From an uncultured delta proteobacterium (GTDB lineage: Bacteria; Myxococcota_A; UBA9160; SMWR01), in contig CAWHTE010000011.1 of NCBI GenBank assembly GCA_963832165.1, positions 128,001 to 192,000 of the forward strand: a DNA stretch of 64,000 bases. The letters are read 5' to 3'. The position numbers and the translations under genes are program-made. The first letter of the stretch is position 1. Every line of letters begins with the position of its first letter. Under the pieces are notes generated by a model that worked only from the letters and a program-made list of their open reading frames with translations, did no database searches and had not been told where the DNA came from. Positions 6,986 to 47,134 of this stretch are shown piece by piece.

Positions 6986-7780
6986 TCACACCCACAGCGC
7001 GAGCAGCGCCATCACCCCCGCACCGGCCACCACCCACAGCCACTTCGCGAAGCGCCCGCCCGGCTCGTGGAACTCCTCGCGCAGGATGTCGAGCGTGGCC
7101 ACGTAGGCGAACGTGCCCGCTGCGAGCGAGAGGAATGCCGCCTCGAACGCGAGGCTCGTCGGACCCGCGAACGCGCCGACCGTCGCGCCCGCCACGATCC
7201 CGATCGGAGTCGCGGCCGCGAACAGCCCGAGCAGCGCGGTCGCGCGCGCGGTGGGCACGGCACTGCGCGCGAGACTCACGCCGAGCGCGAAGCCCTCCAT
7301 CGACTTGTGGGCGAGGATCGCTGCGAAGATCACGAGCGCGCTGCGCAAGTCGCGCTGCGCGCCGAGCGCGAGACCCTCGAGCAGCGCGTGGATCGAGAGC
7401 GCGGTCAGGATCGCGTACACCGCTCCGGGCGAGCCCTGGGCGTGCGCGCCGAAGCGGGCGGCCGAGGGTGCGTGGATCGCGTGGTGGGCGTCCTCGGGCG
7501 GAAGCACGTGCTCGAACAAGAGCATCAAGATGATCGCCGCGGCCGCGAGCAGCGTGCCGATCGGGTACTGCCAGCCGAGCTGCTCCCACTGCGCAGTGGC
7601 CGCGGGCAGCATGTGCACGAACCCCGCGCCGAGAAAGATCCCCGCGGAGAACGCATTGCCCCACTCGAGCAGGCGCGGGGACGCGCCGTCCTCGCCGCCG
7701 CGCCGGCGCAGGGGCAGGGCGCCGCAGACGAGCGCCGTCGCGAGCAACGCGAGCAGCAACACGAGCTTGATCCCGATCAC
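6986..7780 (-). CDS. ZIP family metal (Zn/Fe) transporter (alternative upstream ATG 7891)
   Basis: FSAGIFLGAGFVHMLP, His-rich loop, ALSIHALLEGLALG, AILAHKSMEGFALG. Confidence 0.9.
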   Translation of the reverse strand: MIGIKLVLLLALLATALVCGALPLRRRGGEDGASPRLLEWGNAFSAGIFLGAGFVHMLPAATAQWEQLGWQYPIGTLLAAAAIILMLLFEHVLPPEDAHHAIHAPSAARFGAHAQGSPGAVYAILTALSIHALLEGLALGAQRDLRSALVIFAAILAHKSMEGFALGVSLARSAVPTARATALLGLFAAATPIGIVAGATVGAFAGPTSLAFEAAFLSLAAGTFAYVATLDILREEFHEPGGRFAKWLWVVAGAGVMALLALWV

Positions 7781-7793
7781 GGGGGCACCCCTT

Positions 7794-7872
7794 CTGGACT
7801 GCGCTCGCCCATCTGATGGTCTTCGCTCGCCTTCGGCTCGCTGCGCGAAACTTGCGCCCGCTGCGCGAACCC
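7794..7872 (-). repeat. Hairpin element family B: 41-nt copy (7815-7855) nested in a diverged older copy
   Basis: 7815-7855 is the exact reverse complement of 11523-11563; flanked on the minus strand by GGGTTCGCGCAGCGGGC and AGATGG-GCGAGCGCAGTCCAG. Confidence 0.9.
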
Positions 7873-7966
7873 GTCTGCGCAAAACTCGCATGGTGACGTT
7901 CGGCCGGAACTGCGGCTACCCTGCGGCGCGTCTCGCATCGGGCGGGGCCGAGCAGGGCAGGTAGGA

Positions 7967-9017: not shown

Positions 9018-9725
9018 ATGCGTCATTCGGGAAAACAGCTCGAGCTCGATCGGGTCCGACACGGCGGACGAAGGCCCGGCGCCGGACGGAAGGCTGGCCC
9101 GAATTCGCGGATCCGGCATCGATCGCGCAGATCATTCGCCCGTCGGCTTCCGTGTCATGTCACGCTGAAGGTGCGAGCCGGCATGCCGTCGCTGCGCACG
9201 GTGCGGCTCGTGCGCGAGATGGAGCGAAGCTTCGCAATCGGGTGCGAGCGCGAAGACTTTCGGCTGGCCCACTACTCGATCCAGGGGAATCACGTTCATT
9301 TGATCGTGGAAGCCGACAATGAAAACGCGCTCGGTCGAGGGATGAAGGCACTCGGGGCGCGGATCGCCCGAGCCGTGAACAGAATCTTTAGGCGATCGGG
9401 GCCGGTTCTGGCCGATCGCTACCACGTGCGCATGCTCCGCACGCCGCGCGAGGTGCGGAATGCGCTCGCCTACGTGCTCCTGAACGCCCGCAGGCACGCA
9501 GCCAGGGCCGGTCGCACGCTTTCGCGTGCCTTCGGAATCGATCCCGCCTCCTCGGGGCGTTGGTTCGATGGGTGGAGAAACGCAATCCCGGAAACCTGGC
9601 CTTCGCCTCCGGTCGCGTTGCCCCGGAGCTGGCTGCTCGCTGTCGGCTGGAGGAGGAACGGGCTTCTGACGCTGGATGAAACTCCAGGTGCGCTCGCATG
9701 CCGCCGTGCCACGAAAGAAGAATGA
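9018..9725 (+). mobile_element. HUH/Y1 tyrosine transposase (IS200/IS605 superfamily, RAYT-like)
   Basis: HVTLK strand, YSIQGNHVHLIVEA (HUH), DRYH, catalytic Tyr in ALAYVLLN; AT-rich upstream region. Confidence 0.88.
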
Positions 9726-10307: not shown

Positions 10308-11228
10308 ATGTCGCTTCGCATCGCGCTGTTCGGCCAGGCTCCGTTCGGACGCGACGCGCTCGTGCGTCTGCTCGACGCGGGGCACGACGTGGTGGGCGTC
10401 TACACGCCGCCCGCGGGCGCTCGCCCCGATCCACTCGCGGCCGAGGCCGAGCAGCGCGGCCTCGCGCTGTTCCGCCACGCGCGTTTCCGCCGCAAGGGCG
10501 TCGCGATCCCCGAGCTCGTCGAAGAGCACCGCAAGCTCGGCGCCGAGCTCAACGTGCTCGCTTTCGTCACGGTGATCCTGCCGCCCGAGATCGTCGACGC
10601 GCCGCGCCACGGCTCGCTCTGCTTCCACCCGTCGCTCCTGCCGCGCTACCGCGGCGGGAATGCGCTCGCATGGCAGATCCTGCTCGGCGCGACCGAAGCC
10701 GGTGTCACGGTGTTCCGGCCCGACGCAGGCGTCGACACGGGGCCGATCGTCGTGCAGAAGGGTGGCGTGCCGATCTCGCCCACCGACACCGCCGCGAGTC
10801 TCTATTTCGACAAGCTCTATCCGCTCGGCCTCGACGCGATCGCCGAGGCGGTCGCCGCGATCGACGCGGGCACTGCGGTGTCGCGTGCGCAGAGCGAAGC
10901 CGAGGCGAGCCACCAGGGGCTCGTCGACGATCAGGTGGCGCGGCTCGACTTCGCCAGGAGCGCAGCGGAGCTCGACCGCTGGATCCGAGGCTGCGATCCG
11001 CAGCCGGGCGCGTGGGCGCAGCGCGGCGACGAGATCGTGCGCTGCTTCGACGGATCGCTCGCGGCGGGCGGCGCCGCGGCGGCCGCGGGCGAGGTGGTTC
11101 GGATCGAAGACGGCGCCGCGTTCGTCGCGGCGCGCGACGGGCTCGTGCGCGTGGGCCGCGTGCGCGTCGGCGACGGCGCGAAGCAGCCCGCCGCGGAGGC
11201 TCTCCGCGTAGGAGACCGGCTCCACTGA
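10308..11228 (+). CDS. Formyltransferase (Fmt-like / 10-formyl-THF hydrolase-domain-like)
   Basis: FHPSLLPRYRGG, DAGVDTGPI, IRGCDPQPGAW. Confidence 0.85.
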   Translation: MSLRIALFGQAPFGRDALVRLLDAGHDVVGVYTPPAGARPDPLAAEAEQRGLALFRHARFRRKGVAIPELVEEHRKLGAELNVLAFVTVILPPEIVDAPRHGSLCFHPSLLPRYRGGNALAWQILLGATEAGVTVFRPDAGVDTGPIVVQKGGVPISPTDTAASLYFDKLYPLGLDAIAEAVAAIDAGTAVSRAQSEAEASHQGLVDDQVARLDFARSAAELDRWIRGCDPQPGAWAQRGDEIVRCFDGSLAAGGAAAAAGEVVRIEDGAAFVAARDGLVRVGRVRVGDGAKQPAAEALRVGDRLH

Positions 11229-11941
11229 GTGACGACGCGCTGCGGAGCTTCGCATCGATGCTCGACGCCGCGGGACTCGGTCTGCGCGGCGCGATCGAGA
11301 TCGCGCGCTACGACGAAGCGGTTCCCGGAGCGTGGCGCAGCGCGGCGATCCTGCCGCACGCGCGCACGGCGATCGTGGTCGCGAGCGGCGGCCGTTCGCT
11401 CTGGGATGCGTTCGCTCGAGCGCCGGAGTTCGGCGCGGCCACCGATCCACTCGACGCCTACACGCGCCGCATCACGGAAGCCGCCACCGCGCAGCTCGAG
11501 CCGCAAGTTTCGCGCAGCGAGCGCAAGTTTCGCGCAGCGAGCCGAAGGCGAGCGAAGACCATCGGGCCTGCGAGCGAAGGCCATCGGCGTGGCGGAGCTC
11601 GCGCGCTGTTCGCGTTCGAGCGGTGGGGCGGCGTCTATGCGGACTTCGTGGTGCTCGGGCGGCTCGCGGGGCTCGGCGCACCGAGCCGCCTGGGCCTCCT
11701 GCTCCATCCCCTCTATGGGCCGTGGACGTCCCTGCGGGCGGTCGTGCTCACGAGCGGCGAGTGGGACCCTGGGCCCCCGTTGGCATTCGATCCGTGCCCC
11801 CGCTGCGCCGCCCCGTGCGCCCTGGCGCCTTCCTACGCCGCCGCGCGCCGCGCGTGTGTGATTGGCCCCGAGCACATCTATTCCGAGGCCGCGCTGGCAC
11901 ACCACGCACGCCACGCCTCGGCGGGCCCGTCCGCTCGCTGA
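11225..11941 (+). CDS. QueG/CblC(MMACHC)-like protein with C-terminal Cys cluster and an in-frame repeat insertion (start CTG 11225 or ATG 11258)
   Basis: DPLDAYT, AGLGAPSRLGLLLHPLYGPWTSLRAVVL, PCPRCAAPC...ARRACVIGPEHIYSE. Confidence 0.65.
   Translation: MSDDALRSFASMLDAAGLGLRGAIEIARYDEAVPGAWRSAAILPHARTAIVVASGGRSLWDAFARAPEFGAATDPLDAYTRRITEAATAQLEPQVSRSERKFRAASRRRAKTIGPASEGHRRGGARALFAFERWGGVYADFVVLGRLAGLGAPSRLGLLLHPLYGPWTSLRAVVLTSGEWDPGPPLAFDPCPRCAAPCALAPSYAAARRACVIGPEHIYSEAALAHHARHASAGPSAR
11503..11587 (+). repeat. Hairpin element family B: 41-nt copy (11523-11563) nested in another copy, inside a CDS
   Basis: GCAAGTTTCGCGCAGCGAGC | GCAAGTTTCGCGCAGCGAGCCGAAGGCGAGCGAAGACCATC GGGCCT | GCGAGCGAAGGCCATCGG. 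Confidence 0.92.
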
Positions 11942-36031: not shown

Positions 36032-37027
36032 ATGCCCCCTGTTGCCACAAACACCGCGATCGAGGTGCGCGAGCTCGTCAAGCGCTTCCGCGACGTGGAA
36101 GCGCTCGCGGGCATCGATCTCGACGTGCCGCGCGGCATCTGCTTCGGCCTGCTGGGTCCGAACGGCGCGGGCAAGTCGACGACGGTCGGTGTGCTCACCA
36201 CGCTGCTCGCGCCGACCTCCGGCACGGTGTTCCTGCTCGGGCACGACGTGGTGCGCGAGCGCGCCGCAGTGCGCCGGCAGATCGGCGTGGTGTTCCAGGA
36301 GACCGCGCTCGACCCGGAGCTCTCGCCGCGCGAACAGCTCGCGCTGCACGCGCGCCTGTTTCATCTCGACGCGCCCGCGGCCTGCGCGGATCGTTGGATC
36401 GAGCGCCTCGGCCTCGCCGATCACGCGGATCGCCCGGTGCGCAAACTGTCGGGCGGCCTGCGGCGAAGGGTCGAGATCGCGCGCGGACTGTTGCACCGGC
36501 CCGGCGTTCTCTTTCTCGACGAGCCGACCACGGGCCTCGACGTGGCCGCGCGCGCGGTGATCTGGGACGAGCTGCGCGCACTGCGCCGCAGCGGTGAGAC
36601 CACGCTCTTCCTGACCACGCACTCGATGGAAGAGGCCGACGCACTGTGCGACGTGATCGCGATCGTCGACGCGGGTCGGATCGCGACCTGCGGGAGCCCC
36701 GACGCGCTCAAAGCCGAGCTCGGCGGCGACGTCGTCACGCTCGTGCTCGAGCGCCCGCAGTCCGCGATCGCCGCGCTCGAAGCACAGCCGGGCGTGTCGC
36801 GCGTGGTCGCGGACGGCACGGGTCCCGGCGCGCTGCGCGTCACGGTGGCCGATGGGTCGCGCCGGCTCGCGGGTCTGCTCGAGTGCGCGCGCGGCGCGGG
36901 GATCCTCGAGGTCGACCTGCGCCGGCCCAGCCTCGAGCACGTCTTCCTGCACTACACCGGTCACGGATTCGAGGACGCAAGTTTCGCGCAGCGAGCCGAA
37001 GGCGAGCGAAGGCCATCAGGATGGTGA
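36032..37027 (+). CDS. ABC-2 exporter ATP-binding protein (DrrA-like) with repeat-encoded C-terminus
   Basis: GPNGAGKST, LSGG, FLDEPTTGLD, PSLEHVFLHYTG; ends ASFAQRAEGERRPSGW. Confidence 0.93.
   Translation: MPPVATNTAIEVRELVKRFRDVEALAGIDLDVPRGICFGLLGPNGAGKSTTVGVLTTLLAPTSGTVFLLGHDVVRERAAVRRQIGVVFQETALDPELSPREQLALHARLFHLDAPAACADRWIERLGLADHADRPVRKLSGGLRRRVEIARGLLHRPGVLFLDEPTTGLDVAARAVIWDELRALRRSGETTLFLTTHSMEEADALCDVIAIVDAGRIATCGSPDALKAELGGDVVTLVLERPQSAIAALEAQPGVSRVVADGTGPGALRVTVADGSRRLAGLLECARGAGILEVDLRRPSLEHVFLHYTGHGFEDASFAQRAEGERRPSGW
36977..37017 (+). repeat. Hairpin element family B, 41-nt copy
   Basis: GCAAGTTTCGCGCAGCGAGCCGAAGGCGAGCGAAGGCCATC, one mismatch to 11523-11563. Confidence 0.92.
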
Positions 37028-46678: not shown

Positions 46679-47134
46679 GCCCGTCTCATGGACTTCGCTC
46701 GTCTTCGGCTCGCTGCGCGGACTTGCCAATCTTCGGTGCTCGGTCATCGCGCAGCGATCCTGGACCACCGCGATCCCGGCCGCCTCGAGCCGCGCCGCGC
46801 ACGCGTCGTGCCGGATGCCGAGCTGGAACCACACGCAGTCGGGGCGCCAGGGCAGGGCGAGGATCTCGTCGACGTGTCCGGGCAGATGCGCGGGCGCACG
46901 GAACACGTCGATCAGGTCGACGCGCTCCGGCAGCGCCGCGAGGTTCGGCAACGCGGGCGCGTCGCCCCACTGCGAGAGCTTCGGATTCACTGCGCGCACG
47001 TTGTAGCCGGCTCGCAGGAGGTACTGCGGCACGATCCAGGCGTCCTCGCCCCATTCCGCCTTCGCACCGAGCACGGCGATCGTGCGTGTGCGTTCGAACA
47101 CGCTGCGCAGCTCGGCGTCGTTCTCGAGCGGCAC
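46679..47134 (-). CDS. CoA-binding protein (YccU-like); no stop codon before yciH
   Basis: TIAVLG, VNP, VDLIDVFR, VWFQLGI, VVQDRC. Confidence 0.85.
46688..46726 (-). repeat. Hairpin element family B, diverged copy
   Basis: Minus strand GCAAGTCCGCGCAGCGAGCCGAAGACGAGCGAAGTCCAT. Confidence 0.85.

Follow-up and report, generated by a model that had tools for sequence, protein, structure and literature searches.

A GCAAG-tagged repeat of about 47 nt that lands in older repeats and in genes with a net gain of 42 nt

REPs are short, hairpin-forming, high-copy repeats that carry a GT[AG]G or CGTC tag at the foot of the hairpin and lie mostly outside genes, downstream of them and often between convergent pairs. 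In REPINs two inverted repeats form the unit, and in REP/REPIN-RAYT systems the repeat flanks a cognate Y1 gene. HUH enzymes of the REP type cleave single strands of DNA at C|T and carry out strand transfer (PMC8266576, excerpt). REPINs nested in REPINs (PMC3116915, excerpt) and REPs inside small palindromes and genes (PMC3733652 and PMC6006769, excerpts) are known. Rickettsia palindromic elements (RPEs), about 150 bp long with a long palindrome, insert in frame and place a conserved peptide in unrelated housekeeping genes, the excerpted text establishing no mobiliser for them, while MITEs are small, non-coding, non-autonomous and present in high copy (PMC10969869, excerpt). IS200/IS605 elements recognize hairpins on ssDNA strand-specifically, and TIRYT or class 2 Y1 genes have inverted-repeat flanks (PMC6006769, excerpt). 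Because the junctions of REP-like and RPE-like repeats are rarely readable, their mode of insertion has long been an open question.

Here we analyse a 64,000-nt window (positions 128001-192000 of contig C11) of the source genome, G000 (5.5 Mb, 69% GC, 89% complete), which contains an exact 41-mer twice, at 11523-11563 (+) and 7815-7855 (-). Each occurrence interrupts an older copy of the same element. On the plus strand, the 20-nt left arm of the outer copy (11503-11522) is followed by the 41-mer, 6 nt (11564-11569) and the right arm (11570-11585), which with its tail reaches 11593. On the minus strand, the compound at 7872-7794 consists of a 17-nt diverged left arm (7856-7872, with a further decayed piece at about 7873-7889), the identical 41-mer, 6 nt and a 15-nt diverged right arm; the inner 47-nt copy occupies 7809-7855, and the outer right arm with its tail (7788-7808) lies just upstream of the start of a ZIP zinc transporter gene (6986-7780, -). 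In both compounds, 5 nt of the host hairpin centre have been swapped for 47 nt. The first-pass annotation had described these two nested structures, and we re-found the arms, the 41-mer and the 6 nt at both loci; the 6 nt, which it had set apart as a separate piece, have the length given but are the element's own variable tail. Per-position conservation across 288 copies divides the inner copy at 11523-11564 (+), the 42-nt net unit, into a GCAAG tag, a 4-nt spacer, a conserved 26-nt core with GNA mini-hairpins and a variable last 7 nt, followed by a variable 5-nt tail (11565-11569) in place of the host's 5-nt hairpin centre. Elsewhere in the window, one solo copy of this element lies at a gene's 3' end (36977-37023, +), and there are a solo variant with a 3-nt spacer (46681-46726, -) and a longer, type C family member (2113-2209, -) with the GCAAG tag, a 7-bp hairpin, the same core and an extra 3' hairpin.

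Empty alleles of the 11503 site were found in soil-run contigs with ~98% identical flanks, which have 6 letters in place of 90 (run X6) or 8 in place of 92 (X4) and show the joint to 11594. Compared with these alleles, the compound is a net gain of 84 nt, made of two +42 steps; the outer left arm is likewise missing, and the site empty, in the orthologs of G002-G005. The compound lies in frame in an ORF (11225-11941, +; start uncertain) for which we found no Pfam or NCBIfam family and only a weak MMACHC match (E 0.068), and which may be QueG-like. Preservation of frame by +42, which had been claimed for both loci, is relevant only at this ORF; the 7794 copy most likely lies inside the 5' leader of the ZIP transporter gene, as predicted by our hexamer gene model. 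The ortholog of that gene in G004 has a different compound at the same place, not in frame. Rfam covariance models gave no match to 11400-11700 at E up to 5, nothing in plasmid and phage collections matched 80% of the compound (best E 0.2), and viral contigs contained no core match.

In G000 the repeat is present in 102 type A copies, the short member of a family with 187 cores (102 type A, 20 B, 41 C and 24 other). A GCAAG tag stands 5' of 160 of these cores, compared with a background of 3.4%. With 2 mismatches allowed, a 35-nt pattern matched 86 times in G000, 91 in G004, 17 in G002, once in G003 and in none of 57 other relatives; the 26-nt core is present in 38 of 61 genomes of the order, in up to 572 exact copies. 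From G000, 60 regions of G004 and soil metagenome loci we compiled a set of 288 distinct copies, in which some non-G000 rows represent one locus in related strains and hence are not all independent. Across this set, position 1 is G in 287 copies, positions 1-35 are 89-100% conserved except for the loop base, positions 36-42 are variable, and positions 43-48 are 32-88% conserved, fading out as a G-rich tail. Although one 35-mer is common to 33 G000 copies, 101 of the 102 47-mers are unique. The element is thus dispersed, lineage-specific and mobile, with a 5' end fixed at GCAAG and a fuzzy 3' end. Its ends are not complementary, the 47-nt unit has no long palindrome, and within 250 nt there are 6 direct pairs and no inverted pair, so the inverted doublet of a REPIN is absent. 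Type A copies have a conserved CCA at positions 37-39; a tRNA-like reading of this motif was dropped, since it is missing from types B and C. At four loci (L106, L107, L117 and L142), the element sits in orthologs of G000 genes although the records bear the titles of other phyla; this suggests that the contigs were mislabelled or misbinned, not that the element was transferred.

Like a REP, the element is short, abundant and able to form a hairpin, with a covarying 3-bp stem and a GNA loop. A stem pair of the core is C-G in 130 and G-C in 50 of the 187 cores, a compensatory swap, while the C-G closing pair is kept in 179 and a GNA loop in 174. ViennaRNA did not detect this stem and reported unusual stability on neither strand (z 0.05 to 1.06), and the element's structure rests on covariation and on the literature, according to which mini-hairpins with GNA triloops have exceptional stability in DNA form but are far weaker as RNA, withstand exonuclease and are found at ssDNA priming sites of phages and plasmids (PMC13037366, excerpt). 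Because of the stem swaps and GNA loops, a single-stranded DNA structure is the likely cue for landing. To that extent the data agree with the structure-directed ssDNA cleavage and joining put forward in the first-pass annotation, but 57 of the 102 copies are at ordinary sites without hairpin enrichment. The same mini-hairpins also figure in an account with no dedicated transposase, in which their fragments would be copied or captured by host replication-restart and end-joining (template switching at stalled forks or R-loops, G or GC microhomology and occasional untemplated CT or CC), and the core may be a primosome-assembly-like signal. A cloning-vector stretch beside a ColE1-type origin, presumably the pas/ssiA signal, is pertinent to this account. 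It resembles the 26-nt core (window 11532-11557) in having the core's first 10 nt, a 7-nt hairpin and a similar purine-rich arm, a possible though unproven priming-signal-like structure (PMC8134756, excerpt).

Nesting is frequent. Of the 102 type A copies in G000, 32 have both arms of an older repeat around them, 10 have one arm, 3 are tandem and 57 are solo. The host repeats amount to ~16.8 kb, equivalent to ~1.9 nests per kb, which is ~58 times the rate of intergenic solos (25 in 759 kb, or 0.033 per kb). Among the 288 copies, the largest class comprises 44 nests at the core tip of hosts with an A-type right arm (10 of them G000 loci), and in 41 of these the net length is +42, so that the exchange of a 5-nt hairpin centre for 47 nt, first read from the two window loci, recurs far beyond chance. 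The junction is not, as had been supposed, always placed after GCAGCG(A/G)GC. Two other frequent classes are +44 with extra CT or CC, namely core tips with a B-type right arm (12 of 17 nests, with extra CT in 11) and a site five bases into the core (7 of 7, with CT, CC or GC). Further nests lie just after the type C hairpin (12 rows, 2 judged false by eye), in the first hairpin of type B (10), in the last loop of type C (2) and at GTAG REP tips (6 and 2), six of the latter having only a GAA-loop hairpin in common with the element. The targets therefore include hairpin tips of older copies of the element, as proposed, but they extend to GTAG REPs, which are unrelated, and to longer members of the family. 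Tip nesting is family-wide, judging from one further genus in which another family member sits at the same core tip with exactly the 3-nt loop replaced (L358; G028:C4 ~36.4 kb). The tip of the first type C hairpin, also GAA-looped, carries a nest in none of the 288 copies, nor does any of the 44 intact REP2 hairpins in G000, which counts against a pure 'any hairpin' rule. Nested copies keep the strand of the host repeat even when antisense, and a single inverted host fragment was found beside the 102 copies. Distant copies serve as donors, and the element lands on the sense strand; in older repeats it occupies a few fixed positions, mostly C-GNA-G loops, always in the host's orientation.

Could local replication slippage or an assembly artefact have duplicated the two halves? 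Left-arm-only duplications (8) and head-to-tail copies (23) do occur among the 288 copies, the two diagnostic blocks are identical between inner and outer copy in 3 of 25 A-in-A nests, and the filled 11503 allele is spanned by no metagenome contig examined. Slippage as the general cause is nevertheless refuted, because unrelated repeats are among the hosts and a match between inner copy and host is confined to those 3 of 25 nests. Many hosts lack the inner copy's 5' arm, the inner-outer tail match equals that of shuffles (5.04 versus 4.95 of 7, p 0.33), and the same geometry is seen in independent assemblies. The junction is fixed at the hairpin tip, in agreement with the original reading, and we find duplication of the halves barely credible; slippage acts on these repeats afterwards. 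Head-to-tail arrays with periods of 42, 45 or 46, some of them in nests and reading frames, were seen at six loci (L106, L053, L084, L086, L094 and L147).

Selection clearly filters the copies, as judged from net lengths of 39, 42 and 45 and from a use of the three reading frames of 8, 7 and 1, and hosts have arms of 10-11 nt in common with already nested donors. Survival could be the entire explanation of nesting and sense bias if insertion were unbiased and selection removed antisense copies and spared those in older repeats, or if gene conversion spread them there. We consider this improbable: the nest positions are few, fixed and of one orientation, the nest rate per kb exceeds the intergenic rate ~58-fold, GTAG REP tips receive copies despite having no arm homology, reading frames are open to the same degree on the antisense as on the sense strand, and the inner tails are not clonal.

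We next examined ordinary sites. An orthologous G000 site was located for 180 of 199 distinct copies from outside G000. Weak anchors removed 97 of these and short flanks another 26; both genomes were filled at 22, leaving 35 that were measured. Net length at these 35 sites was +42 in 13, +45 in 6, +39 in 5 and another value in 11. Across the 13 +42 sites, identity to the empty allele after the unit was 0.31, 0.31, 0.15, 0.54 and 0.62 at positions +1 to +5, and it was 0.62 at -2 and -3 and mostly 0.77-1.0 further out. The drop over five bases, together with the +42 mode, establishes '47 in, about 5 out' as the general reaction rather than one specific to nests. The +42 first taken for a nesting geometry does hold in nests, but it is a property of the insertion step. 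Each landing brings in ~47 nt and removes ~5 target nt, mostly for a net +42, with +44 and a 5' CT or CC at some nest positions. No target-site duplication was found at the empty sites, which instead lose ~5 target nt; lacking this as well as terminal inverted repeats, the element differs from MITEs, which it resembles in being small, non-coding, non-autonomous and of high copy number.

Hairpins are not in excess at ordinary sites, either at 119 reconstructed sites (27% versus 27%) or at 29 true empty sites, one of them a duplicate (31% versus 37%), and 100 ordinary sites showed no pairing register. There is a small shift in folding energy (-6.23 versus -5.94 +/- 0.12 kcal/mol), and GNA mini-hairpins are present at 2 of the 29 empty sites versus 1.6%. 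The 22 of 180 sites that are filled in both genomes sometimes have different junction spacing (G000:C4:73920, C5:245936, C11:164977, C1:73237 and orthologous loci), suggesting that the same tolerant spots repeatedly take up copies or let them survive.

Orientation was scored against gene calls from our hexamer gene model, with the leading strand assigned from GC skew on six contigs. Family copies are 56:5 sense inside genes and 66:22 sense between co-directional genes; the bias persists in lagging-strand genes (16:6), while divergent gaps contain 5 leading versus 6 lagging copies. Copy orientation thus follows transcription, not replication. The bias is present in solos (45:6) and nests (17:5), and the GTAG REP controls are near even (23:18 and 14:8) and mostly convergent. 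Unlike REPs, the element is not enriched between convergent genes: 61 of the 187 cores are in predicted genes and 11 are convergent, compared with 71 and 44 convergent matches for the two GTAG REP motifs. Strong sense bias is a further feature that separates the element from REPs and REPINs, although it could be a product of selection. Sense orientation, a variable 3' joint and untemplated bases would all be expected if a reverse transcriptase (RT) copied transcripts and switched template at hairpins, and the extra CT or CC at the 5' joint and the CCA of type A can be read in the same way. We regard this RNA-templated route as very improbable, given that PF00078 (RT) had no match in G000 (89% complete) or G004 (71%), that an RT is found in 5 of 21 repeat-rich versus 8 of 23 repeat-free genomes, with a rho of -0.10 between RT and core counts (61 genomes), that the conserved loops are GNA triloops of the DNA type and that types B and C do not keep the CCA. 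The carriers thus also lack the RT association of a retroelement.

On balance, we lean towards a non-autonomous mini mobile element of ~47 nt (type A), belonging to a GCAAG-tagged family, that moves as ssDNA with the help of a trans-acting enzyme and lands on the sense strand. The unpaired strand, with its GNA mini-hairpins, would fold, and the enzyme would cut the GCAAG end and join it to a 3'-OH in an exposed single-stranded target, this being the non-template strand of a gene under transcription or a mini-hairpin that has extruded. A few bases further downstream, the 3' tail, being unprotected, would then be joined to a G or GC of the target so that the bases in between are lost, and selection would afterwards retain frame-preserving landings in genes. 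The outcome would be a slow gain of 14-residue hydrophilic peptides in protein loops and a build-up of nested repeats. Within this scheme, an ssDNA intermediate is probable, whereas an HUH/Y1-type nickase-ligase acting in trans is a possibility that we hold with some reserve. IS200/IS605-type HUH transposition is not known to lose target bases, and the target loss seen here therefore counts against an HUH model. IS200/IS605 elements further have two precise ends and a replication-set orientation, whereas the element has one fuzzy end and follows transcription; their hairpin recognition remains a model for the inferred step, and no autonomous copy of the element was found.

The gene at 9018-9725 (+) in the window encodes a Y1 HUH transposase-like protein (PF01797, 23.3 bits; NF047646, 40.9 bits, below the cut-off of 80), at most a candidate mobiliser of the element. 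Its sequence is one of 11 paralogues with 53-79% identity and flanks of their own, and no repeat flanks the gene. Support for this protein, which the first-pass annotation had singled out for assay, comes from the order: Y1 count and core copy number correlate (rho 0.49, 61 kin genomes), and Y1 is present in 14 of 21 repeat-rich versus 4 of 23 repeat-free genomes, although this is a correlation among kin and may reflect a general tolerance of mobile DNA. The C|T cut of REP-type enzymes also counts in favour of Y1, because CT is the dinucleotide added at some 5' joints. Adjacency is rare, however, with the core within ~1.5 kb of 7 of 63 Y1 loci and, in G000, at 1.5 kb for 1 of 12 versus 9% of random points. 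By protein search the 9018 family was absent from G001, G003 and G005 and left only a remnant in G004 (71% complete, 91 type A copies), and G006 has 16 matches yet no type A copy. A 34-sequence profile of the family found nothing in five of five repeat-rich genomes, G003, G005 (99% complete), G009, G016 and G041, which have 54-116 exact cores. The 9018 family itself is accordingly a doubtful mover. It looks like a TIRYT-type autonomous element: the gene resembles TIRYT/class 2 Y1 genes (PMC6006769, excerpt), and several copies have inverted-repeat flanks. Its members (L001, L003-L012; L290-L304; L371-L410) form a multi-copy Y1 family of Myxococcota, where look-alike clusters are commonest, with ~235 aa, an NHVH...Y motif and a sigma-70 promoter, close to consensus, that almost abuts the start codon.

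Other movers were also sought. No cognate enzyme gene with repeat flanks was found, the Y1 profile had no match over 245 loci (L043-L287), and in the low-copy genomes G001, G024, G043, G047 and G055 no mobile-element gene was seen by eye among ORFs beside 10 copies. The IS91-type Y2 transposase had no match in G000, its control matching nowhere either, and IS110 was rejected on its weak correlation (rho 0.25). The sole REPtron of G000 (L002 960-2070; G000:C4 ~535 kb) is classical, an E. coli-like RAYT flanked by GTAG REP doublets. GTAG REPs are the second most abundant repeat in G000, and G002 has many inverted GTAG pairs ~70 nt apart. By DNA search, the G000 RAYT was not found in G002, G004, G005 or G006, and G003 gave one 36-nt match. 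The GTAG REP system was rejected as mover on the grounds that G004 has few GTAG REPs and no RAYT was found there, yet it has 91 type A copies; this true REP/RAYT system is separate from the element and serves as its target. That no enzyme tracks strictly with the repeat is in line with the host replication-restart and end-joining account, as are the fuzzy 3' joint, the target loss and the extra CT or CC, which resemble repair joints. The invariant GCAAG 5' end (160/187 versus 3.4%) and the sharp +42 nest peak suggest instead a sequence-specific cutter, and a mobile partner would account better than core machinery for the element's patchy distribution over close genera. On this evidence we think it rather unlikely that host machinery moves the element by itself.

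Each single behaviour has a precedent in known repeats. The element nevertheless fails the defining tests for REPs (its tag is GCAAG), REPINs, MITEs and IS200/IS605 derivatives, and it is RPE-like only in its in-frame habit, being a third as long and differing in its two reading frames, its frequent GNA-loop nesting and its defined net +42 with target loss. We found no description of the family in the open-access literature searched, though the repeat-family supplements of PMC3733652 and PMC6006769 could hold a related consensus; apparently, this family of REP/RPE-like single-stranded mini-elements has so far been undescribed. Tentatively, it might represent a new class of transcription-coupled ssDNA mini-elements with one precise end, which replace five target bases, home to GNA mini-hairpin loops, are moved by an unrecognised enzyme or by replication-restart machinery and write 14-residue peptides into essential proteins across the order. 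If so, at 42 net bases they would be among the smallest self-propagating units in bacteria. Hundreds of young copies with known hosts and empty alleles yield an exact junction rule that is testable with short oligos: a fixed 5' end, ~47 nt in and 5 out, the sense strand and GNA-loop hot spots. If the mover were a new enzyme, this would constitute a minimal, scar-defined ssDNA insertion system.

Whichever the mover, the element steadily supplies core enzymes with in-frame loops. In G000, 16 copies lie mid-gene, using two of the three frames (8, 7 and 1), and 11 of the 12 hosts scanned have Pfam families. They include PurH, Sua5/TsaC, biotin ligase (BirA), a RadA-type ATPase, MMPL and AMP-binding proteins, with 14 residues added to the PurH, TsaC, BirA and RadA-type proteins, and empty orthologs were found for other genes carrying the element. 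Many copies at operon junctions in G000 have their last bases immediately before a start or stop codon. Their G-rich tail is similar to a ribosome-binding site, and the element now contains the end of some genes or lies immediately before it. In G043, a longer family member lies in frame in an ORF that by eye is ATP synthase gamma-like (L336; G043:C1 ~4.886 Mb), and a second copy precedes a gene named, likewise by eye, as beta-subunit-like.
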